DNA of 64,000 bases from Tubulanus polymorphus (GCF_964204645.1 NC_134032.1:8668275-8732274), one strand, 5' to 3'. Positions 2,588 through 54,176 are shown, counted from the first letter of the stretch. Notes: generated by a model not told the origin, from the letters alone. Numbers and translations are program-made.

Positions 2588-15127
<12,540 letters not shown>

Positions 15128-26824: not shown

Positions 26825-27371
26825 ACAAGGAAGCAAGGACTTATTCTTAGCGTGTCAAGGTCGATATTCTTTCAAACTGTCTCATGAATAAGATCTTGGA
26901 TCTTTCATTCTTCATTAATTCAATATATTTCATTTCTTGCAGTTTTGCCAGTTCTGACCCGATCTTAACTTTTTTTGTCCGTTCCATTTTCTTTCGAATA
27001 TCTCATCTGAATGAAATAAACAACTCGCCTGAGAACAAGAAACCACATTTCTTTCATCCATTCTTATGACGTCATCCAGTTGTCCGTACTGTCGTAGTTT
27101 CCTTAGTGAGCAGATGAAATATAGACCCGCAAAAGAACGAACGAACGATGCTGATTCTCTATACAGAACAGGACAGCGCACCGAATGTAAACTTTATTCC
27201 TCAAATATATTCAACCCAAGATGATCGGTGTGAAATCCATGTATTTCTTTTGCAGGATTATCTGACACATTTGTCTAATACAATATTCAGTTTTACGATA
27301 CATTCTATATACTATTCAGTACTGTATAGCTTACAATCGAAAGAAACAATTCAACCTTCGACAAGTATAGA

Positions 27372-27460
27372 AGTAATTAGGAAGTAGGCTTTCATACCAG
27401 AGGTCGAGCGGTCGAGACACCACTCATCACCACAAGTAATTTTTTTTCCTAATAAATGGG
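27372..27460 (+). repeat. Left terminal inverted repeat
   Basis: AGTAATTAGGAAGTAGGCTTTCATACCAGAGGTCGAGCGGTCGAGACACC...CCTAATAAATGGG, reverse complement of 44939-45028. Confidence 0.95.
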
Positions 27461-30400
27461 GGAGAATGAACACCAGCCAGAAAACAATAATGTTAATAAA
27501 AATCAATATTATTGCCAATATTGTAAAAAATACATCGATAAATCCCAAAAATCACGACATGAAAAAACTGCAAATCATATAAAAAATGTAATAGATTTTG
27601 AAACTCCAGAAAATTCCAATGAAAGAAAAGAAAGATTAGAAAATATGAATGTGGATGAAATAAAATGTGAAGTTTGTAATGAATTTATAGTAAAAAGGAA
27701 TTATAATAGACACCTCGAATCACAAAAACACCGCCAAAATTTGAGTAATAATGTTTTAGGAAAACATTATTTTGATGATAAACCTCAACAAGTAAAAAAA
27801 CCAACTTCAAAAACTAAATCCATTTCAAATAAACCTTACATGGAAAATGTTAGAAATTATATTGATTCACTAGAAATAAAAGATACAATTGAAATTTTAG
27901 AAACATTAAATAGTAAAATTGGTCCTGCAGCTATTATATTTAGATTTTTCAAAGGAACAACAATAGAAGATTATAGTAAATTTAATGAAATAATAGAAAA
28001 AATACTAGATTTGATAACAGATGTTGAATATCCAAAAATTAGTATCTCTGGGAAAGTAAGTTTTATAAAGTCAGAAGAAAAATTAAATTATAATATTCAA
28101 ACACACTCTGAAGAAATAATTTCAAAAACACAAATAAAAGAGAAGTTAGAAAAAATATTTAATGAATTTAAACGTCATATTGAAGAAAGATATTTTGAGG
28201 GTTCTGGCTTAACATTGAATGAAATTATATATTTAGATTTAAATGTTTACAATACAAAAAGGAATAAAACATCAAAAAGTAATAAAATGTTTAAAAATGA
28301 TTCAAACTTTACAACAGAAAAGGATATTAAAGCATCATCTTATATTAAATTACCATTTACAACAAAAGCAGCAATAAATGTTCAAAATGAAGATAATAAA
28401 TGTTTTCTATGGTCAATTATTAGCTGTTTACACCCAACAGAAGATATGACGCATAGTTTTAGAATAACAAATTACCCGAAATATGAAACATTATATAAAA
28501 TTGATCAATATCCAGTAACTATAAAAATGATTCCTAAAATAGAAAAAGTTAATAATTTAAAAATAAATGTATTTGAATTAATGCAATTACCAAAGACAAA
28601 AGGTGAAAATATTAAAGATTATACATTGGAAGCTTTATATTTAACAGAATATTATGATGATGAAAATTCTATAGATTCTTTATATTACAAAAAAGATGAA
28701 AATGAACATTATATGTGGTTAAAACAAATTGATTTATGCTTTAGAACAGAAAGTGATCACCATAATAAAATTTATCTATGTAGAAAATGTTTATCTAAAT
28801 TTATGACTGAGAATACATTATTAAAACATAAAGAATTATGTGATAATAAAGATTTCTGCAAATAAATAATGCCAACAGAAAAAGATTATAAATTGAAATT
28901 TACTAATCATAAATTTAAGAATATTGTTCCATTTGTAATTTATGGGGATTTTGAATCGTTGAATAAAGAATTAACCGATCAAGATAGAAAAGAAATATAT
29001 AACAAAAAGCAATTATTAAAATCAATGGATAAAGGAAATGAATTAAATGAAGACACAACACAAGACCCACCAATTATAAATACAATTAAAAAAGTTCATC
29101 AAAGAGCTGCTGCTTATGGAATTTACATCAAATCAAATTATCCCGAATTATATGAAAGTCAATATATTTCTTTTAGAGGTGAAAATGTAGTTAATGATTT
29201 TTGTGATAAAATGATTGAATTAGAAAGTGATTTTGCAAAATTATTAAACAAAAATAAAAGAATAGTTATGAAAAAAGAAGATGAAATTGATTTTAATTAT
29301 GCAACTCATTGTTGTTATTGTGAAAAACGTTTTTATTCATTTGATCAAAAAGTTAGAGATCATGATCATTTAAATTCAAAATATCGTGGAGCTGCTCATG
29401 AAGATTGCAATTTACAAGCTAAGAAAGTTAATTTCGTACCAATATTATTTCATAATTTATCAGGCTATGATACCAACAGTATATTTATAAAACAATTATC
29501 GGGAAAATTGGGTGCAATTAATCAAGAAATAGAAGAATATAATGCTACGAATGGTGTAAATGTAAGAAAATATGATTTTAAACTATTAGCTAAAACATCT
29601 GAAAATTATATTTCATTTCAATTTGGTTGCATTAGATTTTTAGATTTTTATAGATTTCTAGCAAGTTCATTAGATAATTTATCAAAAAGTTTAGTTGATA
29701 ATGATTTTGTTATAACTCGATATTATTATCCAAATGAACAAGATTTTAAATTATTGAGATATAAAGGTGCAATTCCTTATTCATTTTATAAAACACACAA
29801 TGATTTTAATGTAACAGAATTATTAAAAGATCAATTTTAAGATCAATTAAAAGAGGAGTATGTGAAAGACGAAGTGTTTAATAGAACATTAAATATTTGG
29901 AACCATTTTAAGATGAAAAATCATGGTGAATTAGTTGATTTATATTCAAAATCAGATGTTATGATATTGGCTGACATATTTGAAAAATTTAGAGAAGTTA
30001 ATTTGAATCATTTTAATGTTGATCCTTGTTATTGCTAGTCCTGGTTTAACCTGGCAATGTGGTTTAAAATATACAAATGTAGAATTAGATTTATTAAAAG
30101 AACCAGATATGGTTTTATTATTTGAAAAATCAATTAGAGGTGGAATTAGTGGTGTTATGGGAGATAGGTATTTTAAAGCAAATGATGAATATAAATTATT
30201 ATATATTGACGCCAATAATTTATATGGTTGGGCAATGATGCAACCTCAACCATATAAAAATTTTATATTAACAGAAGTTGAAAATGATGATAAAACTAAT
30301 TGGGAAAGCGCAATTATGAGTTTAGAAGATGAAGCACCAATTGGTTATTTCTTTGTAGTTGATTTAGAATATCCTGAAAATATAAAGTTTAAAACAAGAA

Positions 30401-32519
30401 ACTTACCTTATTGCCCAGAACATTTAACTGTAGATGATAGTTATTTAAGTGAATACCAGAAGAAAATAAAACCGAAAGATCATGTTTTTACAGAAAAATT
30501 AATACTTACTCAAAATAATAAATACAATTATATTGTTCATTATAGAATGTTAAAATTTTATCTAAAACAAGGAATGAAATTAAAGAAAGTACATAGATAT
30601 ATTGAATTTAATCAATCGAAGTGGTTAGAAAAATATATAGATTTCAATACTCAACAGAGAACAATATCAAAAACAGATTTTGAAAAAGATTTCATCAAAT
30701 TAATGAATAGTAGTTTTTATGGTAAAACATGTGAAAATATTAGAAATAGAAATGATATTGAATTAGTAAATAATTCTGAACGATTAAGACATTTACAATC
30801 AAGTCCTAGACATTTAGGAAATAAAAGATTTGAAGATTATTTAACAGCAGTTAAATTAAAAAGAACGTCAATGAAATTTAATAAACCTATATTTATTGGT
30901 TCAACTGTTTTAGAAGTATCAAAATTATTAATGTATGATTTTTATTATAATGTTTTAAAACCACTTTTTGGGGAAAAGCATATTGAAATATTATATTTTG
31001 ATTCTGTAACAGCTGACACCCCAATATTATTAAAATGTAATGATAAAATATTGATAAGAAGAATTTCAGAAATAATTCCAAAACAAAATGTTATATTTCA
31101 TATGGTGAAAAAGAATTAATACAAATAAATGGTTTAATAGATGTTTGGACAAGAAATGGATGGAAAAAATTAAAGAATATTATTAGGCATAAAACAAATA
31201 AGAAAATCTATAGAGTTAGAACTAAATTAGGATTTGTAGATGTTACAGAAGATCATAGTTTAATTAAACGAAATGGTGATGAAATAAAATGAACTGATAT
31301 AAAAATTGGAGATGAATTATTACATAAAAGATTTTTCCAAAGAATGAATCATATGTCATTTGATGAAATAATTGATAATATTTATAATATAGAACCCGAA
31401 ACATTAGAAGAAAAAAAATATTTTATCAAAGGATTTTTCATGGGTGATGGTTCAGCAGGTGTGTATAATTATGTTTGGGGTAATAAATATTGTTGGTATT
31501 TATGCAATAAAGACTTAAAATTATTAGAAAGAATTAAGAAATTCTGTGAAGAAGTTTATCCAAATAAAACATTTAAAATCATGGATGTTATGAAATCAAC
31601 AGCAGTTTATAGAATACTTGTAAATAATCCTAAAGATTTTGCTATAAAATATAATGATGAATTCTATATTCATGCAATAGTTAAAAGTAATACTTCAACA
31701 AAAGAAAAGATAGTTCCAGATTATGTATTAAATGCAAAAAATAATTTAAGAAAATGGTTCTTCATTGGATTCTATGCTGCAGATGGTTCAAAAAGTTTCA
31801 AAAACCGCAAAACAATATCTTTAGCTCAAAAAGGAAAAGTTGCTATATCAGGATTGAATATATTATGCAGTTCATTAGGATTTAATATGAATATAGAATT
31901 AATTAAATCTAAACCAAATTGTTTTAATTTAAGGCATGTAGAAAAAGATTTAACTGAAGAAGTTAAAGATTTATTTGAAATATATAACCCAACTGACTAT
32001 GTTTATGATTTATCAACAGATGATGGAACATTCAATTCTGGGTTCCCATTAATCCAAAAAAATACCGATGCGTACATACTAAAAATCAAGACAAATGACA
32101 TAACAAAAGACTTAAAAACATTAAAACATCATTTTGATTTTAGCAATTATCCCAAAGATCATGAACTATTTAGCAATGATAATAAAAAGATTCCTGGTAA
32201 GTTTAAAGATGAATTAAGGGGTGATGAAATGATTGAATTTGTTGGGATAAGAAGTAAAATGTATAGTTACAGAACAAAAGATCATGAAGCTAAAAAGTTA
32301 AAAGGAATAACAAAACATGTGGTTGATAAACATATAGAATTTCAAGATTATTTAAAGTGTTCATATAACTCAATTGTAATGAAACACAAAATGAATTGTT
32401 TAAGATCAGAAGATCATGAGATGTACATTAATGAAGTTGAAAAAACTAGTTTAAATCCATTTGATGATAAAAGACATATTTCAGATGATGGTATAAAAAC
32501 ATTACCTTATGGCCATTAA
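27456..32519 (+). pseudogene. polB: Protein-primed family B DNA polymerase with N-terminal C2H2 fingers, OTU-like region, inserted endonuclease VII-like HNH domain and an intein; disrupted
   Basis: INVQNEDNKCFLWS..HY; ExoI VIYGDFES; VRDHDHLNSKYRGAAHEDCNL; ExoII FHNLSGYD; YIDANNLYGWAM; KLMNSSFYGK; YFD/TD; PGKFKDE; GIRSKMY; KLKGI; PFDDKR..TLPYGH. In-frame stops at 28863, 29838 and 31290; frameshifts near 30030 and 31085. Confidence 0.93.
31003..32063 (+). other. Intein (~354 aa) with LAGLIDADG homing endonuclease inside PolB motif C
   Basis: ILYFD|SVTADTPILLK (block A); VDVTEDHSL (block B TxxH, ~31235-31262); IKGFFMGDG and FIGFYAADG (two LAGLIDADG motifs); YVYDLST (block F); LIQKN|TDAY. Excision restores YFDTD. 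Confidence 0.92.
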
Positions 32520-33841
32520 AACAGAAAATCAATATCATCATACTCGAAATCACTATTGGCTTCTTCATTTTCATCTAATTGTTCTTGTATAATTTGTTTA
32601 GGTTCTTCCATTTCATTTTTCTCATTTAAATAACGTGTTATATTATTCCACATTTCATCTCGCTCTCTTTGTTTCTTTTTGTTTGTTAATTCATCAAATG
32701 GAATTATAATATCTATGTTTAAATAATTTACAATCTTATTTAAAAAGAATTCATAATTTATTGAATCTGTTATTCTATTTTCCAAATGATACATTAATAT
32801 TTGTTTAAATATTTTTTTTATATTTTCCATATCTTCTTCTGTTAATTTAGGTTTTTCATAATAATCGTTAAATAATAAATATAAATACATTTTCTTTTGT
32901 TTTGTGTTAAATGTTGACGGAATAATTGTTTTTATAATATCTTTTTTAGTTATTTCCCCATTTTTATTTTCTATTATTTTCATTTTTTCAAGCCATTGCT
33001 TATATTCTGGTGTATAATCCTCTGTAGAAAATATTTTAAAAATTTCATCTACATAATTTAATTTTGGTTCTATGAGAAAATTTCTAGTTTTTTCTTCACC
33101 CCATAAATTCTTTTGCCATCCACAATCAACACAAAATAACACAGTACCTTCTTGTCTTAAGGCCGCATAACTACATTGTGGACATTTTCGTTTATAATTT
33201 ATTGGTAATAGATCTTCATTAAGCTCCTGGTATTTTCTTACGTATTCTTTATGTTTTATTGTTCTATTATGTAGATTTGAATTACTTGTTGTAATAATCA
33301 ATTTACAATATTTACAATAATATGTTTTTCTTGTTAATTCATTATATTGTTTTTCTAACTTTTCAACTGTTTCTTTATTATCTGGTAACGTTTTCTCATA
33401 TTTTATTTTTTCTAATATATTATTTTTTCTTTCATTGAATTCTGCTTCAAATTTATTAGAAATTTTATCTATATGTGCTTTACGAAATTGATGATTCTCC
33501 CAATCTTCTATATTTTCAGGGTTATATTTTATTCGACAAGGCTCGCAGAAATGATCTTTTATATTATCCTTATCATAGAATAAGAAAGGTCTTTTCCAAA
33601 TAATATCAGGTTCAACTTCAACAGAATTACTATTACTTTCATTACTATCAACATTAGCCGTTGCGCCATTAATTTTACACTTCTCTGAATGTTTTTTAAC
33701 ATAATTTCTTGAGAATAATTTATTACATTTTGGGCAGTTTAGTTTAGGGGGTTTATTTTCATCATGTTTTTTCATATGTCGAGCCATATTACTTTTTCTT
33801 AGAAGTTCACCACAAATTTCGCATGGTATCTTCTCATCCAT
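32516..33841 (-). CDS. Polinton multi-zinc-finger protein (several C2H2 + C4 ribbon, acidic tail)
   Basis: CEICGELLRKSNMARHMKKH, CPKCNK..H..KC, CEPC..H....H, CKYCK..HNRTIKH, CPQC..CVDC; intact 441 aa; TAAATG start. Confidence 0.75.
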   Translation of the reverse strand: MDEKIPCEICGELLRKSNMARHMKKHDENKPPKLNCPKCNKLFSRNYVKKHSEKCKINGATANVDSNESNSNSVEVEPDIIWKRPFLFYDKDNIKDHFCEPCRIKYNPENIEDWENHQFRKAHIDKISNKFEAEFNERKNNILEKIKYEKTLPDNKETVEKLEKQYNELTRKTYYCKYCKLIITTSNSNLHNRTIKHKEYVRKYQELNEDLLPINYKRKCPQCSYAALRQEGTVLFCVDCGWQKNLWGEEKTRNFLIEPKLNYVDEIFKIFSTEDYTPEYKQWLEKMKIIENKNGEITKKDIIKTIIPSTFNTKQKKMYLYLLFNDYYEKPKLTEEDMENIKKIFKQILMYHLENRITDSINYEFFLNKIVNYLNIDIIIPFDELTNKKKQRERDEMWNNITRYLNEKNEMEEPKQIIQEQLDENEEANSDFEYDDIDFLF

Positions 33842-33909
33842 TTATTAAGGAAAAATTTTATTAAAATTAATCTTTAGTGATGAGCGGTAATTTTTTTATG
33901 TTATAAATA

Positions 33910-34666
33910 ATGGTAGAATTAAAAGAATACAGAATATTTGTTGATTCTAGAAAACTTACAAATAATAAATCATATAATTTAATAGTTCAATTAGATAGAG
34001 AATTTAAGAATTGTGTTGATTTAAAATTAGTAAATATAAGTTTATGTAACTCATTTTACAATATATCGGATAAAAGTCTAGAACATTTAATTTTTTCAAT
34101 CTTTTACAAAAAAAGGAATAAATGGTTTTTTATATATTTAAAACTAGGATTATATAATTTAGATACATTAGCACAAGAAATTAATAGAAAAGCTCGAGCT
34201 AAATTAGGGAGTGATTCCGGATTTAGTATTAGAATTTTAAAAAGTGATAGTTCTAATAAAATAAAGATTAGGTTAGCTAATGACGAACAATTTAAATTTA
34301 CAGTAAGAAAACCTTTAGGTAAACTGTTAGGAATTAACCCAGATATTGTTACAGCATACGCAGAAGGTAGATCAAACTTAATACCTTTTACACACTTATA
34401 TTTATTGCAATTTAATTGATCCTACAAAAACATTCGAAGCAACTAAAGATACAATTTGTAATTCTAGTATATTAAATATTTTACCATTAAAGAATGTCAA
34501 ACAATTTGGAACGCAAATAAATTATAATTTGACCGAATGTGATTTTAAACCTTGTATTCCTCAATTTAATATTTTTAAATTAGAAATAAGAAATCATAAT
34601 GGTTATTCAATTGATTTGAATAACTTTCCTGTGATATATGAATTAGTTATAAGATGTAGAGAGTAA
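33910..34666 (+). pseudogene. Minor capsid (penton, single jelly-roll)-like gene with one frameshift
   Basis: IFVDSR, NISLCNSFYNI, GLYNLDTL; after a shift at ~34400 it continues YCNLID...KLEIRNHNGYSIDLNNFPVIYELVIR*, the pattern I associate with Polinton pentons. Confidence 0.65.
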
Positions 34667-34682
34667 TTTTTTCACTATATAA

Positions 34683-35039
34683 ATGAATATAACTGTTGGA
34701 CCGAGTATATGTTTTGGATTTGATTTTAAACGTGAGAAAGAAATGAAATTTAACATTAATGATGTAATTACACATATTAAAAGTATTGCATTTACTAATG
34801 AAACAACATTTGAGTATGAAACAACAATAGATAAAGAAACTTTAAATGTAGAAAAGATTACTAATTTAATTAGAGAATCTTTAAGATTTTATGAATTAGA
34901 TGAAGATTTTATCATAGATGATATTAAAAACATATTAACCGAAATATATGATAATCATAAAAGTAGTAATGAAATAAATGTTGAATTAATCATAAATAAG
35001 TTAACTAAATATTTTGAAGATAGTAATTTTTTTGATTAA
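34683..35039 (+). CDS. Polinton hypothetical protein (118 aa)
   Basis: Intact ORF with TAAATG start in the compact gene array. Confidence 0.6.
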   Translation: MNITVGPSICFGFDFKREKEMKFNINDVITHIKSIAFTNETTFEYETTIDKETLNVEKITNLIRESLRFYELDEDFIIDDIKNILTEIYDNHKSSNEINVELIINKLTKYFEDSNFFD

Positions 35040-35741
35040 TAAATGAGTGATAATAAGTGGATAATAACAGGATTATATAATGGAGCATTACTATCAGTTG
35101 GAACTGTTGGTTATTCAATGGTATTAAAAAAAGTATTTAAAATGGGAAGTGTTAATGTTGATAGATTTGTTCTAAATCGACGAAACGAATCCTCGAAAAT
35201 CTATTGAACACGAAAGCACAGCTACATTTCAAACTCAGCGTGTTTATTTTAGCAACTAACGATGCTGCACTATGCCATATAATGCCGGTTTGCTACAAAT
35301 ATGAAAATATATATATAAGTAATCAATTCAATTTATGCAAAGAAAACTAACCCACAGCAAATCTAAAAATTCGTTACTTACAATTACTGTAGCTCCTCGA
35401 GCAAGTTTCTACGAAAATGACCAATGCTCAACTGTGAGATATTCAATATATACTGTATATATAATGTACTAGACTTAGTAACAACAAAGCATGGAGAGGT
35501 TCAATGAAGGGTTACAAATCCTACAGTACTAAAGCTAAACTCGACTACAATAAAATTCTATAGCAGCAAACCGGACTTCAATTTACAACACAGCACCTCC
35601 TAAACATCCGTATCAGACGGTGTTTGAAAATATAACGATATCATATTACAAAGATTACATGATTACTTCAAATACATATTATTGTCGTATCAAATATAAG
35701 TAATTATCTCGCACATACAAATACAAATTTAATCAAGATAA

Positions 35742-37396
35742 TTATACAATACTCTCTTCCAATACGCAAAGCTTAACTACTGGTCGAACATATTCTGACG
35801 AAGAGGTTTTTACTTTTACCGAACGAATTCGTCCATCATTAGGACTAGGATAAACTTCAATAATACGACCCAATGGCCAATGACCACGAGGAATGTCTTT
35901 GTCTTTGATTAACACTAAGTCACCTAATTTGACATTTTCTGTATTTTCTAGCCACTTGCTTCTCATGGTTAAGGGTGGCAAATACTCTTTCAGCCAGCGA
36001 CGCCAAAAGTGGTCTGCCAGAACCTGGGACTGACGCCATCTTTTTCTACTGTTGATTTCACGCTCATGAAATACTCCAAGGGCCACGACAGAACTAGCAC
36101 CCCCGTGTAAAAAGTGGTTTGGTGTAATGGGTGTAAAATCTGCAGGATCCACGCTATTATAAGTTAAAGGTCGACTATTAACAGATGCTTCCACCTCTAT
36201 AAGCGTTGTTCGCAGCACGTTTTCAGGAAATGATTGTCCTTTAAGGACTGATTTGATAGCCGCCTTTACCGTTCGAACCAATCTCTCCCAAACCCCACCA
36301 AAATGGGGGGGCACAGGGACTATTAAAGGTCCATTTAATACCCTTTTCATGACAAAAATTAGAAATACGAGATTGATTTAATTGTGTTAAACATTCTCTT
36401 AACTCTCTCTCAGCTCCAACAAAGTTGGAACCATTGTCACTATAAATATGACTCGGCTGACCACGTCGCCCAATGAAATTCCTCAGAATTAGTAAAAATG
36501 TGTCAGTTTCCATTGAGTCAGCTACTTCCAAATGTACTGCACGAGTTACTAAACACGTGAATAAGCAAACCCATACTTTGATTGTAGAACGCCCTCTTTT
36601 GATATATAAAGGGCCAAAATAGTCTACCCCACTAAATTGAAAGGGTCTGCAATGGCTAGTAATTCTATGTGCGGGTAAATCCGACATAAAAGGAACTCTA
36701 GGCTTAGCTAATCGACGACGACAACCGAAGCACCGCGAAATCGCACGCTTTGCGACAGATCTAGCTTTAATTGGCCAGTACTTTTGACGAACTAATGAAA
36801 TCAAGTGCTCTGGACCAGCATGGAAATGAATAAGGTGTTCTTTTCGTACAAGAAGCTCCGTGATATGATGAGAGAAAGGGAGAAGCAACTGATGGCGCGC
36901 CTCTGCGGAAACATTTGGAGCATTGTGAATCCTTCCACCTACTCTGATACAGGAGCCATCAAAACTGGATCAAGACAGCGCAAAGAACTATGATCCTTTA
37001 ACTTCCCCTTTTTAAGGAAAGAGAACTCCTCTGGGAATGAGTCACGTTGGGCTTGAGAAACTAAGCATGTTTCCGCAAAATCAAAATCTTCCACTGTCAA
37101 AGTTTTTGCTTTTACAGCTTAACGTGGAACGTGTGAGGCAAAATTCCTGATAGCCCTTAAAATCCAAGCTGTTCTGCGTAACAAAGGGTACCAACGAGAA
37201 TAATCCTCCGGCTGTACAAGACCCGTTAAGTCAATGACTGGCTCAGCCTGAGGAAATGCTAAGACTTTATTCACTAGCTTAGTTTTCTTGAGATTTTCAT
37301 CTATATCTGAAATGATACCTAGATCAGGCTGAGACGGCCATTGCTTTTCAGGAACACGGAGAAATTCTGGACCTGCAAACCAACGATGCGAAAAAG
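35742..37396 (-). pseudogene. BEL/Pao end of RNase H region + integrase, fragmented
   Basis: RWFAGPEFL; H...HAG...RQKYW...CFGC; GVDYFGP, FTCLVTRAVHLE, SDNGSNFVGA, PHFGGVWERLV, WPLGRI; frameshifts and stops. Confidence 0.88.
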
Positions 37397-39565
37397 TCAG
37401 ATCAGAAAGTTCTCAATTTGTCGTGAGAGTGAATTTTCATCAACAAGAGAGCATTCCGAAACAATTGAATGGACGTGAACATCGCACAAGTCATTTGACA
37501 TGTTCCCAAACAAACACCACCCTAATCTAGTCCGAATAGCTAAGGGCTGATTTGATGTCCCTTCCCTTACCTCTAATTGTATATGTGCTCTAGGTACATT
37601 TGCACCCAAAAGTACTTTAACCTGACGTGGGAATGTATCAGGAAATCGCAGACCCTCTAAATGTTTCAACTTATGAGGAGAAAATTCATTATATTTCTGA
37701 AGTGGACAACTGATATTACCAGATGTAGTCCATGCTTGGGACACATGAATGATTTCTGACAAAGGATCATTGCTTCGAACGGTAAAGGAAACACGGCGAG
37801 ATAACTGTGCATCGCTTGAGTGAAGTGTGTTGATAGTCAATACTTGTTTTTTACCAGACAACCCTAAATCAATAGCCAGATCTTCACGGATTAATGTCAC
37901 GTCACTCCCAGAATCCAGCAGACCATACGTCGATATACGTCTTCCGTTAGCACCCTGAACCACAATCGGCAAAACCTGAAAATACACGTCAGAACAATTA
38001 CTATCGAGACCAAGAACTATATTGCGTTCTATTGCGCTAGGTGCTACACCTTGACTACTACTGGCTTGCGATTCACTATTACAAGTGTCTAGATTCTGAG
38101 TTTGATTCTTTTGTTCAATATCATTAATTTTGATTTTACGTTTAACATGAAGCAGTGTATGATGTCTCTTGCCACACCCTGGTTCTTTACAGCAAGAAAG
38201 AGATTTGCAAGTCGCAATGAAATGACCAGGTGACAAACAATTAATACACAAACGTAATCTCTTGACTAGAGCAAATCTTTCATCTACCGATTTATCAATG
38301 AAATCTCCACAATTACTCACAGAATGACTACCTGAACAAATAACACATTCAAATATTTTCCCACCTGACACGCAACTGCTAGACATCTGTTTCGTGGAAT
38401 TATTCACATTGATTTTCCGTGATCCTAAAGCATTACTAGAAAAATTATTACGTTTCAATTTCAACCTATTTTGTTGTAATGAAAATGGACCGAAGTCAGC
38501 GTCAACACAATCTTTGAGCCAACTTTCTAGATCAAACAATGTAGGATCTCGTTGTCGAGATATACGTCTAACGAATTCGTTCCATTTTGAACGCTTGTCA
38601 ATCGGGATACGTTTTACAACTTTCTGTAATAAATCACTACTGCCAATTTCAGAAAGATAATTCATTTGTTTTAGAGTAATTAAGCAATCTCTCACACTAA
38701 TGTAAAAGGAACGTAATGATATTGAATCATATGAATTTGTGGGTGGACCGTTCGTAATTGATTCAATATAAGCCCTAGCTACGTGTACTCTGTGTCCAAA
38801 CACAAACTTTAGCTCCTTAAGGGAGCGTGCATAATTACAACCACTAAACCCAAGACCTTGAATGAGCTCTCTGGCCTCACCTTTCACATGCGACTGCAGA
38901 AGGTCTTGACGTCTGGAATCTTTGATCCCGGGACGATTATGTATATATACTTGCACATAAAACTGCTCAATGAACCTTGGCCATACAAGTGGTGAACCGT
39001 CGAACATCGGGAGACCAATTTTCGGTAAATCTCGATCAATCTCCATCTTGATAACGGCTTCTTCCAGGGAGGTTGATGATTCCACATTTACTATAGTTTC
39101 GACTCCTTCGACCAAATCATCGATCCACGCATCAATGGTCCTAAGCGACGAGTTGTTTACAGCATTCGTCACGACATTCTCTGAAAGATCCTCTGCAAAT
39201 GGATGCGACACGGAAGATGTAGACGACGCTTGGAAAACGGGTGCATTCGGATCAAGAGACGAGTCTCTTTTAGCAAAATTGTCTAACCTTTCTAAAGCAA
39301 CCATAGCTTTATCGAAATAACACTCCATCCAACGCCCAGCGGTTTCGATTTCTTCTTCATTCTCGAGTACAGACATGAACTTGTCGTGAGCAGTTTGCAG
39401 ATTTTGCAAACATCCAGTGATACGTTGCTTTGCCGGTTCAACAGCCGCCGATATGCGAACTGAATCCGCAGCATCAATAGCACGAGTAAGCCAACCAGCG
39501 AGACTTGTACGAGTGGCTTTCAACGACTTACTTTTACTAGTATTTGAATCTTCGTTATCGGTCAT
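37397..39565 (-). CDS. gag-pro: BEL/Pao Gag + aspartic protease
   Basis: LPMFDGSPLVWPRF (DUF1759-like), triple Cys-His cluster CVIC..H...C / CINCLSPGH..C / CKEPGCGKRHHTLLH, protease LLDSGSD, RTRLGWCLFG. Confidence 0.9.
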   Translation of the reverse strand: MTDNEDSNTSKSKSLKATRTSLAGWLTRAIDAADSVRISAAVEPAKQRITGCLQNLQTAHDKFMSVLENEEEIETAGRWMECYFDKAMVALERLDNFAKRDSSLDPNAPVFQASSTSSVSHPFAEDLSENVVTNAVNNSSLRTIDAWIDDLVEGVETIVNVESSTSLEEAVIKMEIDRDLPKIGLPMFDGSPLVWPRFIEQFYVQVYIHNRPGIKDSRRQDLLQSHVKGEARELIQGLGFSGCNYARSLKELKFVFGHRVHVARAYIESITNGPPTNSYDSISLRSFYISVRDCLITLKQMNYLSEIGSSDLLQKVVKRIPIDKRSKWNEFVRRISRQRDPTLFDLESWLKDCVDADFGPFSLQQNRLKLKRNNFSSNALGSRKINVNNSTKQMSSSCVSGGKIFECVICSGSHSVSNCGDFIDKSVDERFALVKRLRLCINCLSPGHFIATCKSLSCCKEPGCGKRHHTLLHVKRKIKINDIEQKNQTQNLDTCNSESQASSSQGVAPSAIERNIVLGLDSNCSDVYFQVLPIVVQGANGRRISTYGLLDSGSDVTLIREDLAIDLGLSGKKQVLTINTLHSSDAQLSRRVSFTVRSNDPLSEIIHVSQAWTTSGNISCPLQKYNEFSPHKLKHLEGLRFPDTFPRQVKVLLGANVPRAHIQLEVREGTSNQPLAIRTRLGWCLFGNMSNDLCDVHVHSIVSECSLVDENSLSRQIENFLI

Positions 39566-40142
39566 GATGAGCTTTCGAGTAATTCAAACTATAATGTTCT
39601 AAATCGACGAAACGAATCCTCGAAAATCTATTGAACACGAAAGCACAGCTACATTTCAAACTCAGCGTGTTTATTTTAGCAACTAACGATGCTGCACTAT
39701 GCCATATAATGCCGGTTTGCTACAAATATGAAAATATATATATAAGTAATCAATTCAATTTATGCAAAGAAAACTAACCCACAGCAAATCTAAAAATTCG
39801 TTACTTACAATTACTGTAGCTCCTCGAGCAAGTTTCTACGAAAATGACCAATGCTCAACTGTGAGATATTCAATATATACTGTATATATAATGTACAAGA
39901 CTTAGTAACAACAAAGCATGGAGAGGTTCAATGAAGGGTTACAAATCCTACAGTACTAAAGCTAAACTCGACTACAATAAAATTCTATAGCAGCAAACCG
40001 GACTTCAATTTACAACAGATTTGATATAAATGATATTTCAAAATTAACATTAGCAGTTACTTTATCTAATTTAACTATTGATTATTTAGAAAAACAAAAA
40101 TATATTCCTCCCATATAAATGCATAATTTTTTTGCTAAATAA

Positions 40143-40565
40143 ATGGCTTCTGCAATTATAACTATTATAGGATCGGCAATTGTTAACGCTTTAGCATTTA
40201 CTGGTGGCGGTTATTTATTTAAGCATATTGATAAAAATAGTTCATTAGGAGAACAAAGAAGACATAATTTAGCATTAGAGAAATATAATAAAGCAGCAGA
40301 AGAATACAGAGAAAAACGACAAAACTATATGGATTATATTAACAAGGAATTATATGATCAGAAGATTTCACATAGAGATTTTCAATCAGTTGATGATGCA
40401 ATGAGTTTATATAACGCAGTAACCAATAAAGAAAAATTACATCTATACAAACCTAAATTATCAGATTATTATACCCCAAGTAAAGAACAACAGAAATATG
40501 AAATAATTTGGATTTTAGGTGGAACAGTTATTGTTATATTTGTAGCATATAAATTTACTAATTAG
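40143..40565 (+). CDS. Polinton small membrane/coiled-coil protein (140 aa)
   Basis: N-terminal hydrophobic VNALAFTGG, EQRRHNLALEK, C-terminal TM; TAAATG start. Confidence 0.75.
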   Translation: MASAIITIIGSAIVNALAFTGGGYLFKHIDKNSSLGEQRRHNLALEKYNKAAEEYREKRQNYMDYINKELYDQKISHRDFQSVDDAMSLYNAVTNKEKLHLYKPKLSDYYTPSKEQQKYEIIWILGGTVIVIFVAYKFTN

Positions 40566-40584
40566 TAATTTTTTTTCTAAATAA

Positions 40585-41019
40585 ATGGAAGATAAAGTTG
40601 ATAGTATTGATATTATTCCTCATGATATAAATAAAACTAAATTAAAAATATATTTAGAAAAACAAATATTAGAATTTGAAAGTGACTTAAAGATAAAAAA
40701 GAAAAAATATTTAAAAAGTAAAATTATATATTATCTTATTATTAGTGGTTCGGTTACAATTAGTTCTGTAATAACATTTCTAGCAATATTCAGTCCATTA
40801 ACACCTTTAACTATATCAATTGGTGTATTAGGATTAACTTCAAGTGTTTTAACTGGTATAAGTTCAAAATTAAATATAAAAAGTAATAAAGAAATAATTA
40901 AAACTAATATAAAAGAAATTAATAAATTGAAGAATACACTAGATTATATAATAAGTTTAAATGGTCATATAACAGTTGAAGAACAAGATAATTTATTAAA
41001 AGAATTAATAAATTATTAA
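40585..41019 (+). CDS. Polinton two-TM protein (144 aa)
   Basis: Central hydrophobic hairpin flanked by Lys-rich coils; TAAATG start. Confidence 0.7.
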   Translation: MEDKVDSIDIIPHDINKTKLKIYLEKQILEFESDLKIKKKKYLKSKIIYYLIISGSVTISSVITFLAIFSPLTPLTISIGVLGLTSSVLTGISSKLNIKSNKEIIKTNIKEINKLKNTLDYIISLNGHITVEEQDNLLKELINY

Positions 41020-41035
41020 TTTTTTAATTAAATAA

Positions 41036-41566
41036 ATGGTAGATAGTTTTCCAAAAGCTTTCCAATATAATAAATCAATTAAATATAATATTCCTGCAAT
41101 AGATTTTAATAAAGATATTACATATAGAAATGAAGTTTTAGATTCATTAACTAATTTAGAAATTTATGTTACTGAAACTAATAATTTTAATGCAAAGATG
41201 GAAAATATATTTCATGTATATTTAATTAATTTTAAAAAATTGAAAGATGAAAAACAATGGTTATTAAAATCTAATATGAAGTATTGGCAGAACCAATTAA
41301 ATTTTGCTGTTTATTGTGCAACAACAGGTTGTGGAATTAGTTGGAATGATCATTTGAATAATTCTAAATATAAATTAATTCAAAGTTTATTTAGATTTCA
41401 TACATACTTTCAAATCAGAATAATATTAAATGAATTAGAGTGCGCTTTACCAAAATATATATATAATTACACTCATCCATTCATCCACTCATCCAATTCA
41501 TCCAATTCATCCAATTCATCCACTCATCCATCAATATACAGTGAATTCTATAATATTTTGAATTAG
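41036..41566 (+). pseudogene. Polinton-associated protein, apparently truncated at ~41452
   Basis: YWQNQLNFAVYCATTGCGIS...FRFHTYFQIR..L.EL.CALP, then runs into TCATCCA simple repeats. Confidence 0.6.
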
Positions 41567-41588
41567 GATTTTATTTTATAAATTTATA

Positions 41589-41731
41589 TTCTTGTTAAAT
41601 CTATTTGAATAGAAATCAAAAAGATTTAAATAAAAAAACAATAAGTTACTTTATCTAATACTAACTTATTTAACTTATTGTTTTTTTATTTAAATCTTTT
41701 TGGATTTCTATTCAAATAGATTTAACAAGAA
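41589..41731. repeat. Long hairpin (60-bp arms, ~22-nt loop)
   Basis: 41589-41648 pairs with 41671-41731 with one indel. Confidence 0.9.
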
Positions 41732-42109
41732 ATTCAATAACTTTAACTGTTAGTATCACTCTTGTATTATTTCATTGTTTCTCTTATTGAATAAGCCAAC
41801 TAACTAATATCACTCTTGTATTATCCTAGTCAATTGTAAAGAATTTACAATATCATACTTGAATGAATTAAAACATAAATTACTTCTGTTACTTCATTTT
41901 CAGAAATAAAGCATAATATGTATTCAATACCATTAATACGTATTTAATACCATCAATACGTATTTGATACGTATTTAATACATGGTATTAGGGTATCTAA
42001 TAGGGTATCTAATACATTGATACCTCAACCCCCCTTTTTTATTAACTTTTATTTTCATACATTTCAACTAATATATTTTATATTTTCAGCTAATTTAACA
42101 GTCGATTTC

Positions 42110-42412
42110 TTATTTTGATTCATATAATTTTTCATCAAGTTCATGAATATACATGTGATTTCTCAAACTCTTTTTATTTTTATATCTTTTATTGCATATT
42201 TCACAGCATTTAATATTATTCAATCTATCTGAAATATAATTCATATTTTCTATTAATTCAGTGTATCTAATTTTACAGCAATCATAGAATTCTAACAACT
42301 GTTTTATACTATAAATTGAAAAAGAAAATAAACCTGTAAGCATAATAATTGATTTAATATTCTGTTGATTTTTATATATTAGATGTAATAAGTTTAATAT
42401 ATTTTCACTCAT
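42110..42412 (-). CDS. Polinton small protein with C-terminal C2H2 finger
   Basis: CEICNKRYKNKKSLRNHMYIH; hydrophobic N-terminal segment; TAAATG start. Confidence 0.65.
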   Translation of the reverse strand: MSENILNLLHLIYKNQQNIKSIIMLTGLFSFSIYSIKQLLEFYDCCKIRYTELIENMNYISDRLNNIKCCEICNKRYKNKKSLRNHMYIHELDEKLYESK

Positions 42413-42432
42413 TTATTTATTTAATTAATTCA

Positions 42433-42630
42433 CTAATCTGATTCAATAACTTTTTTATGATTATTTTTATTTCCATTTAATTTTTTCAATTTCTTGCTCA
42501 ATTTTATATTTTCATTCATCAAATCCTTACTAATATTCTCATAGTATAAATAAAGCGCAGCCAATATTAATCCTCCTGCTACAAGATAATGTTTCAAATC
42601 ACTTTTCCCAGTTGGGATGAAACCATCCAT
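42433..42630 (-). CDS. Polinton small single-TM protein (65 aa)
   Basis: YLVAGGLILAALYLYY; TAAATG start. Confidence 0.6.
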   Translation of the reverse strand: MDGFIPTGKSDLKHYLVAGGLILAALYLYYENISKDLMNENIKLSKKLKKLNGNKNNHKKVIESD

Positions 42631-42756
42631 TTATTTAAGAAAGAAATTAAACAGTTTATAAAATATTTGCTAGTTTTTAATTAAATATTTTATAATCATT
42701 TTAAAAATATTAAATTTTTAAATGATTAAATCAAATAACAATTAAATTTACAGCCA

Positions 42757-43035
42757 AACAATTTAACATTTCAACTGTCAAACAATTTATCATTTCAACT
42801 GTCTTATCATTTCAACTGTCAAACAATTTATCATTTCAACTGTCAAACAATTTATCATTTCAACTGTCAAACAATTTATCATTTCAACTGTCAAACAATT
42901 TATCATTTCAACTGTCAAACAATTTATCATTTCAACTGTCAAACAATTTAACATTTCAACTGTCAAACAATTTATCATTTCAACTGTCAAACAATTTATC
43001 ATTTCAACTGTCAAACAATTTATCATTTTAACAGT
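42757..43035. repeat. 24-bp tandem repeat (~11 copies)
   Basis: (TCATTTCAACTGTCAAACAATTTA)n. Confidence 0.95.
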
Positions 43036-43088
43036 CTATTAGATATTTAAATCATTTAACTCAATTCAATAATTATAATGTAGAATTG

Positions 43089-43739
43089 TTACTCTTTACA
43101 CCAGTTTTTATGTTGAATTGTTTCATAATGCTTTGATTTATGTGATTTTAAATATTTACCTCCGCAATAACAATGCACTTTTTCATTAGGATTGAATTTT
43201 CTAAATTCATCATCTAATTTACATTGAACTGCAATATCTTTAAATGATTTTTCATTATCTAATTCACATTGAATGCCAATATTTGATGAATTTTCATTAT
43301 AGATAATTTGTTTATTATCAAAATTGAAATAATATAATTGTCTTTTTTCAATTCTTAAGTTAATCAAATCATTGTAATCTTTTGAAAGTATTATATCATC
43401 ATTTCTTTCATTGAAAGGAGTTTTAAGAATATTAATTATGTTTTCATCTAAAGTTCCTTTAAAATTTAAAACTGTATTGAATACTTTAGGATTTTTAACA
43501 CCATTATCAAAAGTATCTACTAGTTCAGTAATTAAATATGTTTCATTTGATAATATTTGATTAATTACAGTAATATTTTCAATTTTATAATACCTTGCGG
43601 ACACTAAATTTGTTGCCGAAATATAATTTTTAATGTAAAACTGTGAAAATGATTTATTGGTTTCATTGATTTCGATTTTAAAGTTGGGTTCTTCTTCTTC
43701 TTTCTTCATTTTTACAACAAAATTTTTATTAAAACTCAT
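43089..43739 (-). CDS. Polinton protein with C-terminal CxC..H..T..H zinc finger (216 aa)
   Basis: VHCYCGGKYLKSHKSKHYETIQH; intact ORF. Confidence 0.65.
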   Translation of the reverse strand: MSFNKNFVVKMKKEEEEPNFKIEINETNKSFSQFYIKNYISATNLVSARYYKIENITVINQILSNETYLITELVDTFDNGVKNPKVFNTVLNFKGTLDENIINILKTPFNERNDDIILSKDYNDLINLRIEKRQLYYFNFDNKQIIYNENSSNIGIQCELDNEKSFKDIAVQCKLDDEFRKFNPNEKVHCYCGGKYLKSHKSKHYETIQHKNWCKE

Positions 43740-43859
43740 TCAAATATAAATATTCAATGTTTTAAATATGAATTATTTCACTCACACTTTTATATTGAAT
43801 AATCTATCAATTTATATGTTATTCATATATATTTTATTCATGTATATGATTATTTTAAG

Positions 43860-44202
43860 AGTAATAGGGGTAATGGGCTTTCAGGTTAAAGGTTGAATGG
43901 TCGAGTTCATTAAAAAATGAAAAACATGAAAATAATAACAATTTCTACTTGAATTAGGAGTGAAACTCATAAAAAATGAAAAATAATTCTCACACGCTCG
44001 AATTTATTTCACTCACACTTTACTCACACTTTTTTCTAGCGAGTAAAAATGAAAAATAAATTCGAGTGTGTGAGAATTATTTTTCATTTTTTATGAGTTT
44101 CGCGACTAATTCAAGTAGAAATTGTTATTATTTTCATGTTTTTCATTTTTTACGAGCTCGACCGTTCGACCTTTGGCTTGAAAGCCCATTACCCCTATTA
44201 CT
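43860..44202. mobile_element. 343-bp foldback mini-element with Polinton-like termini
   Basis: ~150-bp arms; AGTAAT...ATTACT ends; the first ~46 bp align with the host Polinton TIR; imperfect 6-bp flanks TTTAAG/ATTAGG. Confidence 0.75.
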
Positions 44203-44616
44203 ATTAGGCGCCTTTAATATAATGTGTTTCCTGTCAACCATTGAAGGAGAATTGGTGAGGTGTGGGTCACAGGGGTGTAATTAGAAATGCTTGGGGATAG
44301 GTATCTCGTGGCGCCTCTCAATAACGGGATGCTTATCCCCTAAAAACTCTGTGAGTCAAGTCGGGTGGTTTTGCTAAAACTTACCGTAAAAACATTGAAA
44401 TATTCCTTTTAATCACGAGAGAGAATGTATCCTCCTGTCCTGTGTGTGTTGTATGTACTGCGTGCTTATTATATAACTGCTATAACAACAACGTTGAATT
44501 GCAACACCTGTTTGATCGATCAATATGTAACAGATGTTTGACTGTATGATTGTAGTTGTTTGTAAAACGACTAAGGTCATTTTGGATTCTAGATATTCAT
44601 TATTTTTATCTCTTAT

Positions 44617-44943
44617 TTAATCAACAATTTCTAAATCATGATGACCGTCTTCATTTTTCCCATGGTGGATTATTTTAAATCTTTCTAAATCTTTTAATTC
44701 CTCTGTACTCAATGAAACCCATTTATCAGGTAAAAATACTTTAAATTCTCGCGATGTACTAACATTACAGTAGCTTAAATTCGCTGATACTTTCTCTCCA
44801 TATTTAGTTTTTATCTTTTCTAATTTCAATATTTTATGTTCAATTTCTTTTGTAACATCAACTAACTTTTTTATTTCAAATTGTTTTTTTGCTGGTTTAA
44901 TTCTGTTATTTATTGTTGCTAAGAATGCTTTTCTATCTCCCAT
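44617..44943 (-). CDS. Polinton 108-aa protein, possibly OB-fold ssDNA-binding
   Basis: KIKTKYGEKV..L...FKVFLPDKW pattern; ATG lies inside the right TIR. The fold is inferred. Confidence 0.6.
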   Translation of the reverse strand: MGDRKAFLATINNRIKPAKKQFEIKKLVDVTKEIEHKILKLEKIKTKYGEKVSANLSYCNVSTSREFKVFLPDKWVSLSTEELKDLERFKIIHHGKNEDGHHDLEIVD

Positions 44944-45028
44944 TTATTAGGAAAAAAAATTACTTGTGGTAATGAATGGTGTCTCGACCGCTCGACCTCT
45001 GGTATGAAAGCCTACTTTCCCAATTACT
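44939..45028 (-). repeat. Right terminal inverted repeat
   Basis: Ends ...CAATTACT followed by TSD TATAGA. Confidence 0.95.
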
Positions 45029-45542
45029 TATAGACAATTCCATCCTCCCTCGGCAGGGATTTGAACCTGATGGCATCGCTACACTCAGCCACGGCACTAA
45101 CCCCTGCCACACTAGACCGGGTGCGCAGGTACATGCGAAGCTTTGCCGCACGAAAACTTGCGGCACCAATCAGATTGCTCGTTGCATAATCGCTGAGGTA
45201 AATTTAACGGAAGAACTATAAATGGGAAAACCCGGGCTGAAATAAAACGGGATATCTGATCGGCTAATAATGACATCATCTAGGCTGCGCATGTAGCTGC
45301 ACACTCGGTCTAGTGTGGCAGGGTTTCGTACCGAGGCAATCTCAATCTCGGGGGAGGATGAGACAAATCTGGAAAGGATGGCTGCTTCAATAAATCGCCC
45401 CAAGTACATAAAACCCATAGATAGATTTTATCGCATTAGGCGGATTACACAATAGAGCGGTCCGAATGGATTACCGGCCAGACCGGTACCGGTTTAGGTG
45501 CAGACTGTCCGATAAAATATACATACCACCAATCAAAAATCT

Positions 45543-46828: not shown

Positions 46829-48132
46829 AAATCTCGTTAGATTTTCGGGTTTAACCATGAAATTTTCCTGGGCGATTATACAAAGGTCAATCTGATTCCA
46901 TCAGGTTCGAACCCTGCCCAGGGTAAACAAGGATTTCCGGCGTATAAATGGAAATGATAGGAAAATTTCAAATATATTACATTCAGTCGACTCCGCTCAT
47001 GTCGGATATTTTGGGACCGTAAAAAATGTGTCCGACTATAGTGATATCCAAGTTGGTGATACGTATTTCTTAAATATTGTCACAAAAAATATTTCAACAA
47101 ACATCTGAATTGAACGGTTATTCGATTCGGTTGGATGATTCACGTATCAGGCTGGGTGGGTAAAATATCAGGTGTCATCGCTCTTATGTTTGCGCTTGTC
47201 AGTGAAATGTAATTTTGATTGTGGCGTAAATCAAATTTCAGCCGTTCAGCAATAAAGAATCAAACTTCCAACGCGTTAGAGTTACGTGCATTGGGAATGT
47301 CGTATGCTGTTGTTGTTGTTGCATTCATCGGAATCATTGCCTAATATTTATGCAATGTACAAAGTTATCGGTCAGGCGCCGATTCAGACGGTAGCACCGT
47401 AGGTACGTGCTACCGCCGCAATAATCTTGTGCCCTTTTTTCACGCCCAAAGCAGAAAAGGGCACTTTTTACAAGACGAGGTAGATAATTTTAAACAAAAA
47501 GCACATAATTCTTCAGGATTTTGTCTTTATATAAATTGATAACATTATTAGAGTACACTCCCAGATTCCTGACAGTGGTTGTCTCCACAGTGACCTTTGT
47601 CGCTCTACGATCCTAGTATACCTATCTGTGGTACATCAGACACTAAGGTTCCAGTGAACGGTTAAGGTGCGGTAGATTCATGTATGGTCTTTTTATTCTA
47701 ATATGTCTAATAGTAAATTCAGACTTGCTGTCGTTGGGTTGATGACCACTAATGTAAGAAATGTAAACCTTGTCGCGTTCAAGAAGGAAAGTTAACCGAG
47801 TAAAAGTTAATGGTAAATTTGGAAGTGGGGTCTAATTTTCTCAAGAATGATTAAAGCGTTTATTACCGATTAGCTGTCTAGGTGGTGGACTGTGCTCCAC
47901 TGAATCCATGAGGTGGCGCTGTGATCAAGCCATGTCGGTATTTTTCCTCTCGTAATATTCTATAAAGTAATTCAAGTTCCACGTTTCTGAACTGCTCAAC
48001 AGTAACGTCGTCAAATAGCCAACAGTAGTAAGAGCTCCTCGTATATCTATGTAAGTCACTACCAGTTATTTTTAGAGTGATTCTCCGCCGAAATCCGGTC
48101 TTCACGCCGCGCGTGTTTCAATAAAATCAAAT

Positions 48133-50337: not shown

Positions 50338-50635
50338 AAGTCTCTCGTGCGTTTGTCTGGTGCTCTCAATTTACCCTGCTGTCGTGTTATGCTGCTGTGC
50401 CTGTAAACCTTTACGTTTATTTTTTCTACAATATGTATGATGTATTAATATATGTGGTAAAGTATATATCTTAATGTCCCAACGAAACTGCTGTGTCTAT
50501 AATACTAATTTACTAGTTACTAGATATTCCTATTACCTCAACAACATATATACTCTACTGTTCTGCAAGAATGTTAACTGCGTATACTTGAATTACTTTG
50601 TTTTAGTCTCTTACTTGTACATTTCTCCTATCAAT

Positions 50636-53600: not shown

Positions 53601-54176
53601 AGTCTCCACTCACTTCTGGAATGCCTCGACCTCTCAGGTGTTTGGTGCAATCAAGGGTCAAACCATCCAAAAAAGATAATTAATCTACTGCAGTCTAAAA
53701 TAAAAGCTCTTTATTCTTCCATTTGGCTCAAAGAAATTAATGACTCAAACAAAAACCCAAAACTCCGATCCTACAAACTATTTAAATCACGCTTCATTAT
53801 AGAAAATTATATTGTTGCCAACAACTTCACAAATCGCCGCGAATTCTCCAAATTACGCCTTGGGTCCCATCATCTCCGTATTGAAACTGGACGACATCAC
53901 AAACCTCCAATACCGGTTCCCGATAGGATCTGTCAATTTTGCTCAGATCAATCTGTTGACGATGAACTGCATTTTCTGATCAACTGTTCATACTCCGACA
54001 GTGCCAGGTCTGATATTTTCACGTATTTGGACACTTTTACCGATTTCAGGACCATGTCTCACATTGATAAATTCGCCTTTCTGATGTCTTACAATAACAA
54101 CGATCCCGAAATTTCCACAATTGTTTGCGATTTGGTCAATAAACTGGTTAAGCTAAGACTCGACTCCATTTCATAG
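50636..54176 (+). pseudogene. LINE ORF2 (APE endonuclease + reverse transcriptase) with two frameshifts
   Basis: WNVDG, ETH, GDFNA, ILNGR..GD..G.FT, SVIDY; KAVGPDNI, NYRGI, FVDFKAAFDS, GVKQGCVLSPLLFN, LYADD, YLGI; RIC..C...DELHFLINC. Shifts at ~51990 and ~52385. Confidence 0.92.

Follow-up and report, generated by a model that had tools for sequence, protein, structure and literature searches.

A pol-c intein in the catalytic motif of a Polinton DNA polymerase from the animal Tubulanus polymorphus

How does a full-length intein with a homing endonuclease come to sit in the catalytic motif of a polymerase gene on an animal chromosome, and is it still on the move? The question is posed by 64,000 nucleotides of DNA from Tubulanus polymorphus (GCF_964204645.1 NC_134032.1:8668275-8732274), the whole of which we call the window and from whose first letter all positions are counted. 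It holds a 17.7-kb Polinton copy (27372-45028) with terminal inverted repeats (TIRs) and a perfect 6-bp target-site duplication, TATAGA, and the gene for the element's protein-primed B-family DNA polymerase (pPolB; PolB for the family as a whole) is split by the insert. A sequence-only reading of the window had proposed an intein at the pol-c site used by RNA-primed PolBs of archaea and giant viruses, a jump of that intein between PolB subfamilies, and the coexistence of intein-free alleles. Our best explanation, at a probability of roughly 0.7, is that the pPolB motif of a Polinton, present in an animal genome in both filled and empty alleles, is split by a pol-c intein related to those of giant viruses, one that likely derives from an ancient capture from a large DNA virus, likely homes, and is predicted to splice. 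Directly observed are the insert with its exact site and motifs, its relatives, the multi-copy state and the empty alleles.

An intein in the polymerase motif

The polymerase gene runs on the plus strand from 27456 to 32519 and begins inside the left TIR. Its N-extein (27456..31002) comprises zinc fingers (zf-U1), an endonuclease-VII-like insert (Endonuclease_7, E=0.0028), an exonuclease and the palm as far as YFD (30994-31002, the Asp codon GAT lying at 31000-31002). The intein (31003..32063, plus strand, 1061 nt) starts with Ser at 31003 and ends with Asn at 32061-32063, after which Thr-Asp resumes at 32064 and opens the C-extein (32064..32519, plus strand, to the stop), 83% identical to that of L001. 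The closest whole polymerases, L001 (87% identical in the palm) and L002 (73%), are both empty, with YFDTDS intact. The palm piece of the window has no direct Pfam polymerase hit; the protein-primed class is seen in the uninterrupted relative P0001, whose exteins are 58% identical to the window's and which carries PF03175.

The insert is a class 1 Ser1/Thr+1 intein of the pol-c allele with a LAGLIDADG homing-endonuclease domain, and both its span and its blocks, as first read, hold to the nucleotide: block A (SVTADTP, with the Ser1 nucleophile) at 31003..31023, block B (TEDH) at 31245..31256, the two LAGLIDADG motifs FIKGFFMGDG (31422..31451) and FFIGFYAADG (31758..31787), each with its acidic residue kept, and blocks F (VYDLS, 32001-32015) and G (ending FNSGFPLIQKN) within 32001..32063, all on the plus strand and followed by Thr+1. 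The class 1 residue set is thus complete (Ser1, block B TxxH, block F Asp, terminal Asn, Thr+1), the Ser1/Thr+1 splicing residues being those described for the Mimivirus intein (PMC549080; here and below, published work is cited for the parts of each source that were covered). A further His, in IIRHK (31188..31190, plus strand), lines up with a histidine in the PolB intein chain 9hth, has its counterpart in 11/11 Polinton inteins and probably corresponds to the motif-NX histidine described for cysteine-less inteins (PMC10189870). The penultimate residue, usually but not obligatorily His, is Lys in the window and His in 8/11 Polinton inteins. This Lys had been taken as unusual; it is certainly present, but 20/83 RNA-primed site-c inteins share it, and the Mimivirus intein ends VKN/T (a slash marks a splice junction), which rules it out as a special feature.

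Five breaks interrupt the gene in the window copy: two stops (28863-28865 and 29838-29840) and a frameshift near 30007-30037 in the N-extein, and a frameshift (near 31086-31090) and a stop (31290-31292) in the intein. The sequence-only reading had the two in the intein right and missed the other three.

Profiles and structure agree on the identity of the insert. Pfam LAGLIDADG_3 matches above its cut-off (E=9.5e-8), while Intein_splicing matches at E=5e-7 with 30.1 bits, under the 35.8 cut-off, from a query without block A, which lies in another frame; the NCBIfam matches are intein-containing proteins, and by sequence PI-PkoII is the closest relative with a solved structure (E=2.5e-6). The fold was assessed on the uninterrupted intein of P0001, 62% identical to the window's over 356 aa. 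Its predicted structure (mean predicted local distance difference test, pLDDT, 93.3) has endonuclease-bearing inteins as top PDB matches (TliVMA, E=2e-18; PI-PkoII, E=2e-17), a fold match to I-DmoI (root-mean-square deviation 2.7) and, in a viral structure library, giant-virus DNA polymerases at the named ranks 2-5; on this model the insert has a Hint fold. An RNA intron is ruled out as the identity of the skipped stretch, since the insert is in frame in uninterrupted relatives and the joined form is found in DNA reads.

With the intein lying between the catalytic aspartates, a polymerase can work only once it has been spliced. The residues predicted to remove the intein in uninterrupted copies are Ser1, the histidines of block B and motif NX, Asp in block F, the final Asn and Thr+1; their action would rejoin YxDTD and so make the enzyme functional.

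Two known systems frame the comparison. The Mimivirus PolB intein (PMC549080) has the same Y.D/TD site, Ser1/Asn/Thr+1, block B Thr-His, two LAGLIDADG motifs and KN end, and its ~350 aa are like the window's in length and 37% identical; here, however, the host protein is a protein-primed PolB with barely alignable exteins, and the carrier is an integrating 17.7-kb Polinton with many chromosomal copies in an animal. The archaeal PI-PkoII and the cysteine-less PolB16 intein (PMC10189870) share the class 1 Hint fold and endonuclease, the Ser1 and Ser/Thr+1 chemistry and a probable NX histidine, but are only 14-18% identical in structure alignments and sit in another host class, and the Polinton intein is contiguous, not split.

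Relatives, copies and empty alleles

Uninterrupted intein-bearing Polinton-type pPolBs (P0001, P0002, P0017, P0027, P0031, P0032) fall into about six lineages, and intein-free ones occur beside them. A search of longer proteins gave 15 matches: P0001 and P0002, Polinton-type and filled at the same site, 12 RNA-primed PolBs including that of Mimivirus, and one topoisomerase II. That 14/15 are PolB site-c inteins bears out the proposed pol-c site and its link to giant-virus RNA-primed PolBs. The best 120 of 1026 matches to the P0001 intein include five protein-primed polymerases (P0001, P0017, P0027, P0031, P0032), and a search of short proteins (106 matches) added many Polinton fragments; the fragment P0312 is 75% identical over 153 columns, and the N-terminal junction of the fragment P0380 matches the window's. 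The best 150 of 3158 matches among 50%-representatives include no pPolB and one Polinton-like fragment of 190 aa (P0189), so the Polinton form appears rare beside the giant-virus form. Scans of viral contigs with the window intein, the L001 PolB and an open reading frame (ORF) of the element at 41036 gave no matches, and a scan with the Polinton-intein alignment gave two giant-virus contigs and no Polinton; a pPolB alignment scan found six more distant viral-contig pPolB loci, with an intein in 0/6. Neither the GTDB genomes, searched with Polinton-specific patterns, nor 50,697 phage records gave a match. The same intein family also occurs in topoisomerase II (QD/...N/TD; P0015, P0278) and at a second PolB site (SAN/...N/SMY) of RNA-primed polymerases (P0026, P0043, P0149).

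Polinton inteins are 37-41% identical to those of RNA-primed PolBs, whose exteins barely align with theirs; for P0027, the identity is 46% in the intein and 26% in the C-extein. Both LAGLIDADG acidic motifs are intact in 11/11 full-length Polinton inteins.

Coexistence of filled and empty alleles is clearest in the P0017 cluster (136 members, of which 15 are listed). Thirteen of the listed members span the site, seven filled and six empty, and between the seven filled and the five long empty alleles the exteins are 93.8-98.7% identical. When filled alleles are compared with empty ones, the fraction of differing positions is 0.42 over the ten residues on one side of the site and 0.40 over the ten on the other, against 0-0.03 from -70 to -11; a background of 0.17 upstream of -80 is an indel offset in one allele and not signal. 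The empty alleles vary among themselves near the site, and P0138 and P0140 read YTDCD, with Cys at +1, in place of YxDTD, a possible escape from the nuclease; YGDTD is a further variant of the empty site in this cluster. The site-flank differences fit co-conversion of flanks, target escape, or both.

For the host itself, four of the 11 listed sequencing runs were mapped, and the results at 92% likeness below come from X6, a raw DNA run under the same species label, of which ~12% was read; X5, a marine metagenome, matched in short scattered pieces and was not used. At 92% likeness the depth is 4.3-4.6 in the flank (three bins), ~220-310 in the exteins and ~195 in the 5' half of the intein, which suggests about 55 polymerase copies, about 40 of them with the intein, on a thin baseline and with a possible contribution from free genomes. 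Loose read ends at the TIR agree at only 0.57-0.71, with mixed flanks, as expected from many insertion sites. The breaks of the window copy are private to it, and the family is not decayed: other letters stand at the intein stop in 217/223 reads and at the two extein stops in 234/242 and 242/242, and at the two frameshifts 82/146 and 132/215 reads differ from the window copy.

At 82% likeness the depth falls by half where the intein begins and ends (350-700 in the exteins, 150-260 within the intein). A skip of exactly 1061 nt occurs in 33 reads with 21 different starts, and a further 40 reads (27+10+3) leave the intein out with a few other letters at the joint. Reads joined precisely across the site mean that empty alleles exist as DNA in the same species, which, together with the P0017 cluster, is what had been predicted.

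Reads also reveal variation among copies. At 92% likeness the depth is ~195 over the 5' half of the intein but ~75 between 31782 and 32015, where contigs contain replaced stretches; possibly the host carries several intein subtypes with different second halves of the nuclease. Reads of other copies carry a short duplication in the TIR (27421-27447) and skips of 282-292 nt in the N-terminal zinc-finger region of PolB (27537-27837).

Origin, homing and competing explanations

Trees were built after cluster near-copies, fragments under ~150 model positions and RNA-primed inteins more than 58% identical to a kept row had been dropped (214 rows to 114); the two IQ-TREE intein trees use hand-picked subsets of 50 and 24 rows. 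With FastTree (133 rows), 17/19 Polinton inteins form one branch (100) within mostly RNA-primed PolB site-c inteins, and IQ-TREE recovers the same clade at 100/100 with 13/15 Polinton inteins (50 rows, bootstrap not fully settled) and 12/14 (24 rows); P0297 and P0310 fall apart from it. Among the 114 non-Polinton rows, 93 are site-c inteins of PolBs with giant-virus-type exteins, and five T4-like rows are scattered. The polymerase of P0027 is of another class (end branch 5.2), yet its intein lies within the Polinton clade. In the extein tree filled and empty alleles interleave with five state changes, the order of lineages mirrors the intein tree, and a single polymerase lineage of filled alleles is rejected (approximately unbiased test, p-AU 5e-7).

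The Polinton-intein clade, the matching lineage order and the interleaved alleles argue for one old capture followed by long co-descent and lasting polymorphism. On these trees the intein appears to be an old lineage, present in several Polinton lineages and largely following the polymerase, with a donor narrowed only to RNA-primed viral PolBs, mostly of giant-virus type. The supposed jump between PolB subfamilies accordingly stands as far as intein kinship goes, but not as a one-off jump into this copy.

We envisage one capture at the base of the Polinton clade, then co-descent with repeated loss and re-invasion, a further entry into the distant polymerase class of P0027 and possibly a second capture for P0297/P0310. 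The endonuclease would cut the empty YxD/TD coding site in sister Polintons, whether these are other chromosomal copies or free genomes replicating alongside, and repair templated by a filled copy would transfer the intein plus some flanking sequence. Since a multi-copy element would bring donors and targets together in one nucleus, a partner virus would be needed only for the first capture. That the nuclease has been retained across so much divergence while empty alleles persist beside filled ones suggests that homing continues.

Several observations weigh against this explanation. The copy estimate is built on three low-depth flank bins of one run, 12% read. An exact skip is absent from the 15 of 31 joints displayed at 92% likeness, so the empty alleles may come from sister subfamilies now resistant to the nuclease. 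Support for the sister group of the Polinton clade is weak (81/48 in the 24-row tree), and the near relatives include rows closest to a T4-like polymerase. Most "giant virus" labels are the Pfam architecture PF00136/PF03104 plus a few names (P0008, Mimivirus; L003 and L004, GVMAG contigs), and the use of Polinton-intein queries to retrieve the database rows makes these more likely to cluster. Inside the main clade the intein tree matches the extein tree, as simple vertical inheritance with losses would also predict, and a placement of the P0027 intein outside the other Polinton inteins is not rejected (AU p=0.109). An animal host, finally, is seen for the window contig and not for the other intein-bearing Polintons.

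Where might donor and recipient have met? A start at TAAATG, mostly behind a T-run, is found in 9/14 ORFs of the element against 42/528 of all its ATGs (p ~2e-7; the 14 are 17 ORFs of at least 50 aa minus three internal pieces of the broken PolB), the starts listed for the pattern being 27456, 33841, 34683, 35043, 40143, 40585, 41036, 42412, 42630 and 44943. The close relatives L001 (2/3) and L002 (3/3) share it, whereas the distant L005-L010 have it at 2/66 ORFs, under length cut-offs that differed from those of the window count. Intermediate and late genes of vaccinia use TAAAT as their initiator (PMC6211774), and the element, with no RNA polymerase recognised in it, may depend on the enzyme of a large DNA virus. 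The starts hint at a life of the element inside a large-virus factory, and such a factory may be the meeting place with the donor, because most genes start at this poxvirus-type TAAATG. Against the hint, the analysis turned up no large virus of this kind, and nothing links the closest inteins to a poxvirus-like group. A bolder proposal makes the Polinton clade a virophage-like parasite of an unseen poxvirus-like invertebrate virus, in whose factory the intein was caught, with an active cycle of invasion, target-site escape and re-invasion among dozens of germ-line copies; we regard it as tentative, a possibility with the odds clearly against it.

Could the intein instead be a mere passenger, which entered once in an ancestor, is inherited vertically and must splice but does not home, the empties being sister subfamilies that lost it or never had it? 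The congruent trees speak for this, as do the missing exact skip at 92% likeness and the similar divergence of intein and extein from the window in P0001, P0017, P0031 and P0032 (58-62%, 45-48%, 41-51%). Unused homing endonucleases are expected to decay, however, and both nuclease motifs are intact in all 11 full-length inteins, which are only 37-62% alike; the filled and empty alleles of the P0017 cluster are up to 98.7% identical with their differences clustered at the site, and the five state changes of the extein tree would demand repeated precise loss. We therefore consider a passenger unlikely.

A second alternative keeps the homing but changes the donor to a T4-like bacteriophage or another RNA-primed polymerase outside the giant viruses, leaving TAAATG unrelated to the capture. 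It draws on P0158, P0159 and P0177, which are closest to a T4-like extein and have inteins among the best scores, on the FNxG.PL end that P0158 and P0159 share with Polinton inteins, and on the weakly supported sister branch. The preponderance of giant-virus-type exteins (93/114) over five scattered T4-like rows, the lack of any match in the phage records or, with Polinton-specific patterns, the GTDB genomes, and the eukaryotic cells that Polintons and giant viruses have in common make such a donor improbable. That the element is misassembled symbiont, protist or free-virus DNA, as its G+C of 22-27% against ~40% outside might suggest, we dismiss almost entirely in view of the perfect 6-bp duplication at both ends, the retrotransposon nested inside, the animal-type YTHDF gene on the same contig and the many different TIR flanks in reads of the run that also covers the window flank.

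The element, its surroundings and what the intein means

The explanation we prefer, an old capture from a large DNA virus with continued homing, places the intein in a family of integrating elements of which the window holds a damaged copy. The target-site duplications (TATAGA) occupy 27366..27371 and 45029..45034 on the plus strand and are identical. Inside them lie the left TIR (27372..27463, plus strand), which starts AGTA and reaches into the TAAATG start of PolB, and the right TIR (44936..45028, minus strand), its inverted-repeat match (82 nt, 96%). Downstream of PolB and convergent with it is a 441-aa zinc-finger ORF (32516..33841, minus strand, TAAATG start), 41% identical to the corresponding neighbour of L001, followed by a frameshifted ORF (33910..34666, plus strand) with a weak DUF5901 profile match (E=0.009) and no function assigned. 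A small ORF starting at 35043 is interrupted by a nested long terminal repeat (LTR) retrotransposon (35168..40017, minus strand), which is recent, its LTRs being 99.8% identical over 423 nt, and which we take from its ORFs to be Bel/Pao-like. The remaining small ORFs of 40143..44943 start at 40143, 40585 and 41036 on the plus strand and at 42412, 42630, 43739 and 44943 on the minus strand, six of the seven with TAAATG. The ORF at 41036-41566, of a family without a name and without explanation from an Atlas search, runs into a 9-bp tandem repeat (41473-41530) that may mark an internal deletion of the element. Near the right end lies a long internal inverted repeat (43856-44206; 99-nt arms, 96% complementary, 44-nt loop).

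No Pfam match to an integrase, ATPase, protease or capsid was found in 10 ORFs and 12 six-frame read-throughs outside PolB and the retrotransposon, although divergent capsids can escape Pfam. The window copy therefore looks deleted or non-autonomous: it is a dead, retrotransposon-hit and probably deleted member of its family.

The G+C content is 22-27% within the element and ~40% outside. On the same contig, 12.5 kb upstream of the Polinton, is the YTH domain of a host YTHDF (N6-methyladenosine, m6A, reader) gene, with most of the coding sequence in one exon (13333..14868, plus strand); its score of 287 bits to YTHDF1/3 structures against 131 to the yeast protein favours an animal YTHDF1/3 and thus an animal contig. 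An Atlas search assigned this gene to Eukaryota at large, Chordata being the most frequent group. Downstream are a two-ORF element (48076-54176), presumably a non-LTR retrotransposon, and a 305-aa ORF (54653-55570) that we take to be methyltransferase-like.

The element resembles described Polintons/Mavericks (Barreat and Katzourakis 2021, PMC8097293; Starrett et al. 2021, PMC8502044) in its protein-primed PolB, TIRs and 6-bp target duplication, the last two being marks of Mavericks (PMC8097293). It differs from them in its ends, which begin AGTAAT and not (AGT)2 or (AG)3, and in the four genes not recognised in the window copy. Nuclease domains inside Polinton polymerases are likewise known as HNH/VSR inserts in pPolBs (Jeong et al. 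2023, 10.1101/2023.08.22.554363; Krupovic et al. 2024, PMC11071308), for which Krupovic et al. propose intein invasions as the source; the parts covered of these papers do not mention a Hint domain, whereas the window insert is a full splicing domain plus LAGLIDADG in the catalytic motif. Endogenized giant-virus polymerase inteins (Gallot-Lavallee et al. 2023, PMC10710043) also place a viral polymerase intein in nuclear chromosomes, but in Klebsormidium, Tetrabaena and a labyrinthulid the carriers are giant-virus-like genes, whereas here the carrier is a multi-copy Polinton of an animal with filled and empty alleles; two supplements of that study contain no Polinton or animal term.

A review states that inteins are absent from metazoan genomes (PMC8529194), and a eukaryote-wide survey counts 0 in Metazoa, with viral inteins in four giant-virus families and unclassified viruses (PMC5784728); Ogata et al. 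judged direct homing implausible even between Mimivirus and archaea (PMC549080). The word "intein" is absent from the main texts of PMC8502044, PMC8097293, 10.1101/2023.08.22.554363 and PMC11131425, and the parts covered of PMC12220804 and PMC13768754 mention inteins in general terms only. The open literature gave no intein in a Polinton or in any protein-primed polymerase; subscription journals, InBase, Repbase and the bioRxiv supplements of the nematode study, all outside the search, could mention one. Judged from sequence, then, what appears new is a known intein allele in a new polymerase class, in a new vehicle and, for the window, in an animal nuclear genome, with population-level signs of homing.

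Many chromosomal copies in an animal thus contain a complete intein, nuclease included, borne by an integrating virus-like element and not by a cellular gene, and the range of the pol-c allele extends from RNA-primed to protein-primed polymerases. Its kinship would record, in physical form, a transfer of genes between large DNA viruses and the Polintons associated with animals, with helper dependence an open question. Filled and empty alleles in one multi-copy genome make the homing cycle measurable directly from sequence, and, if the virophage-like proposal were true, the nuclear genome of this animal would hold a working intein and homing endonuclease.

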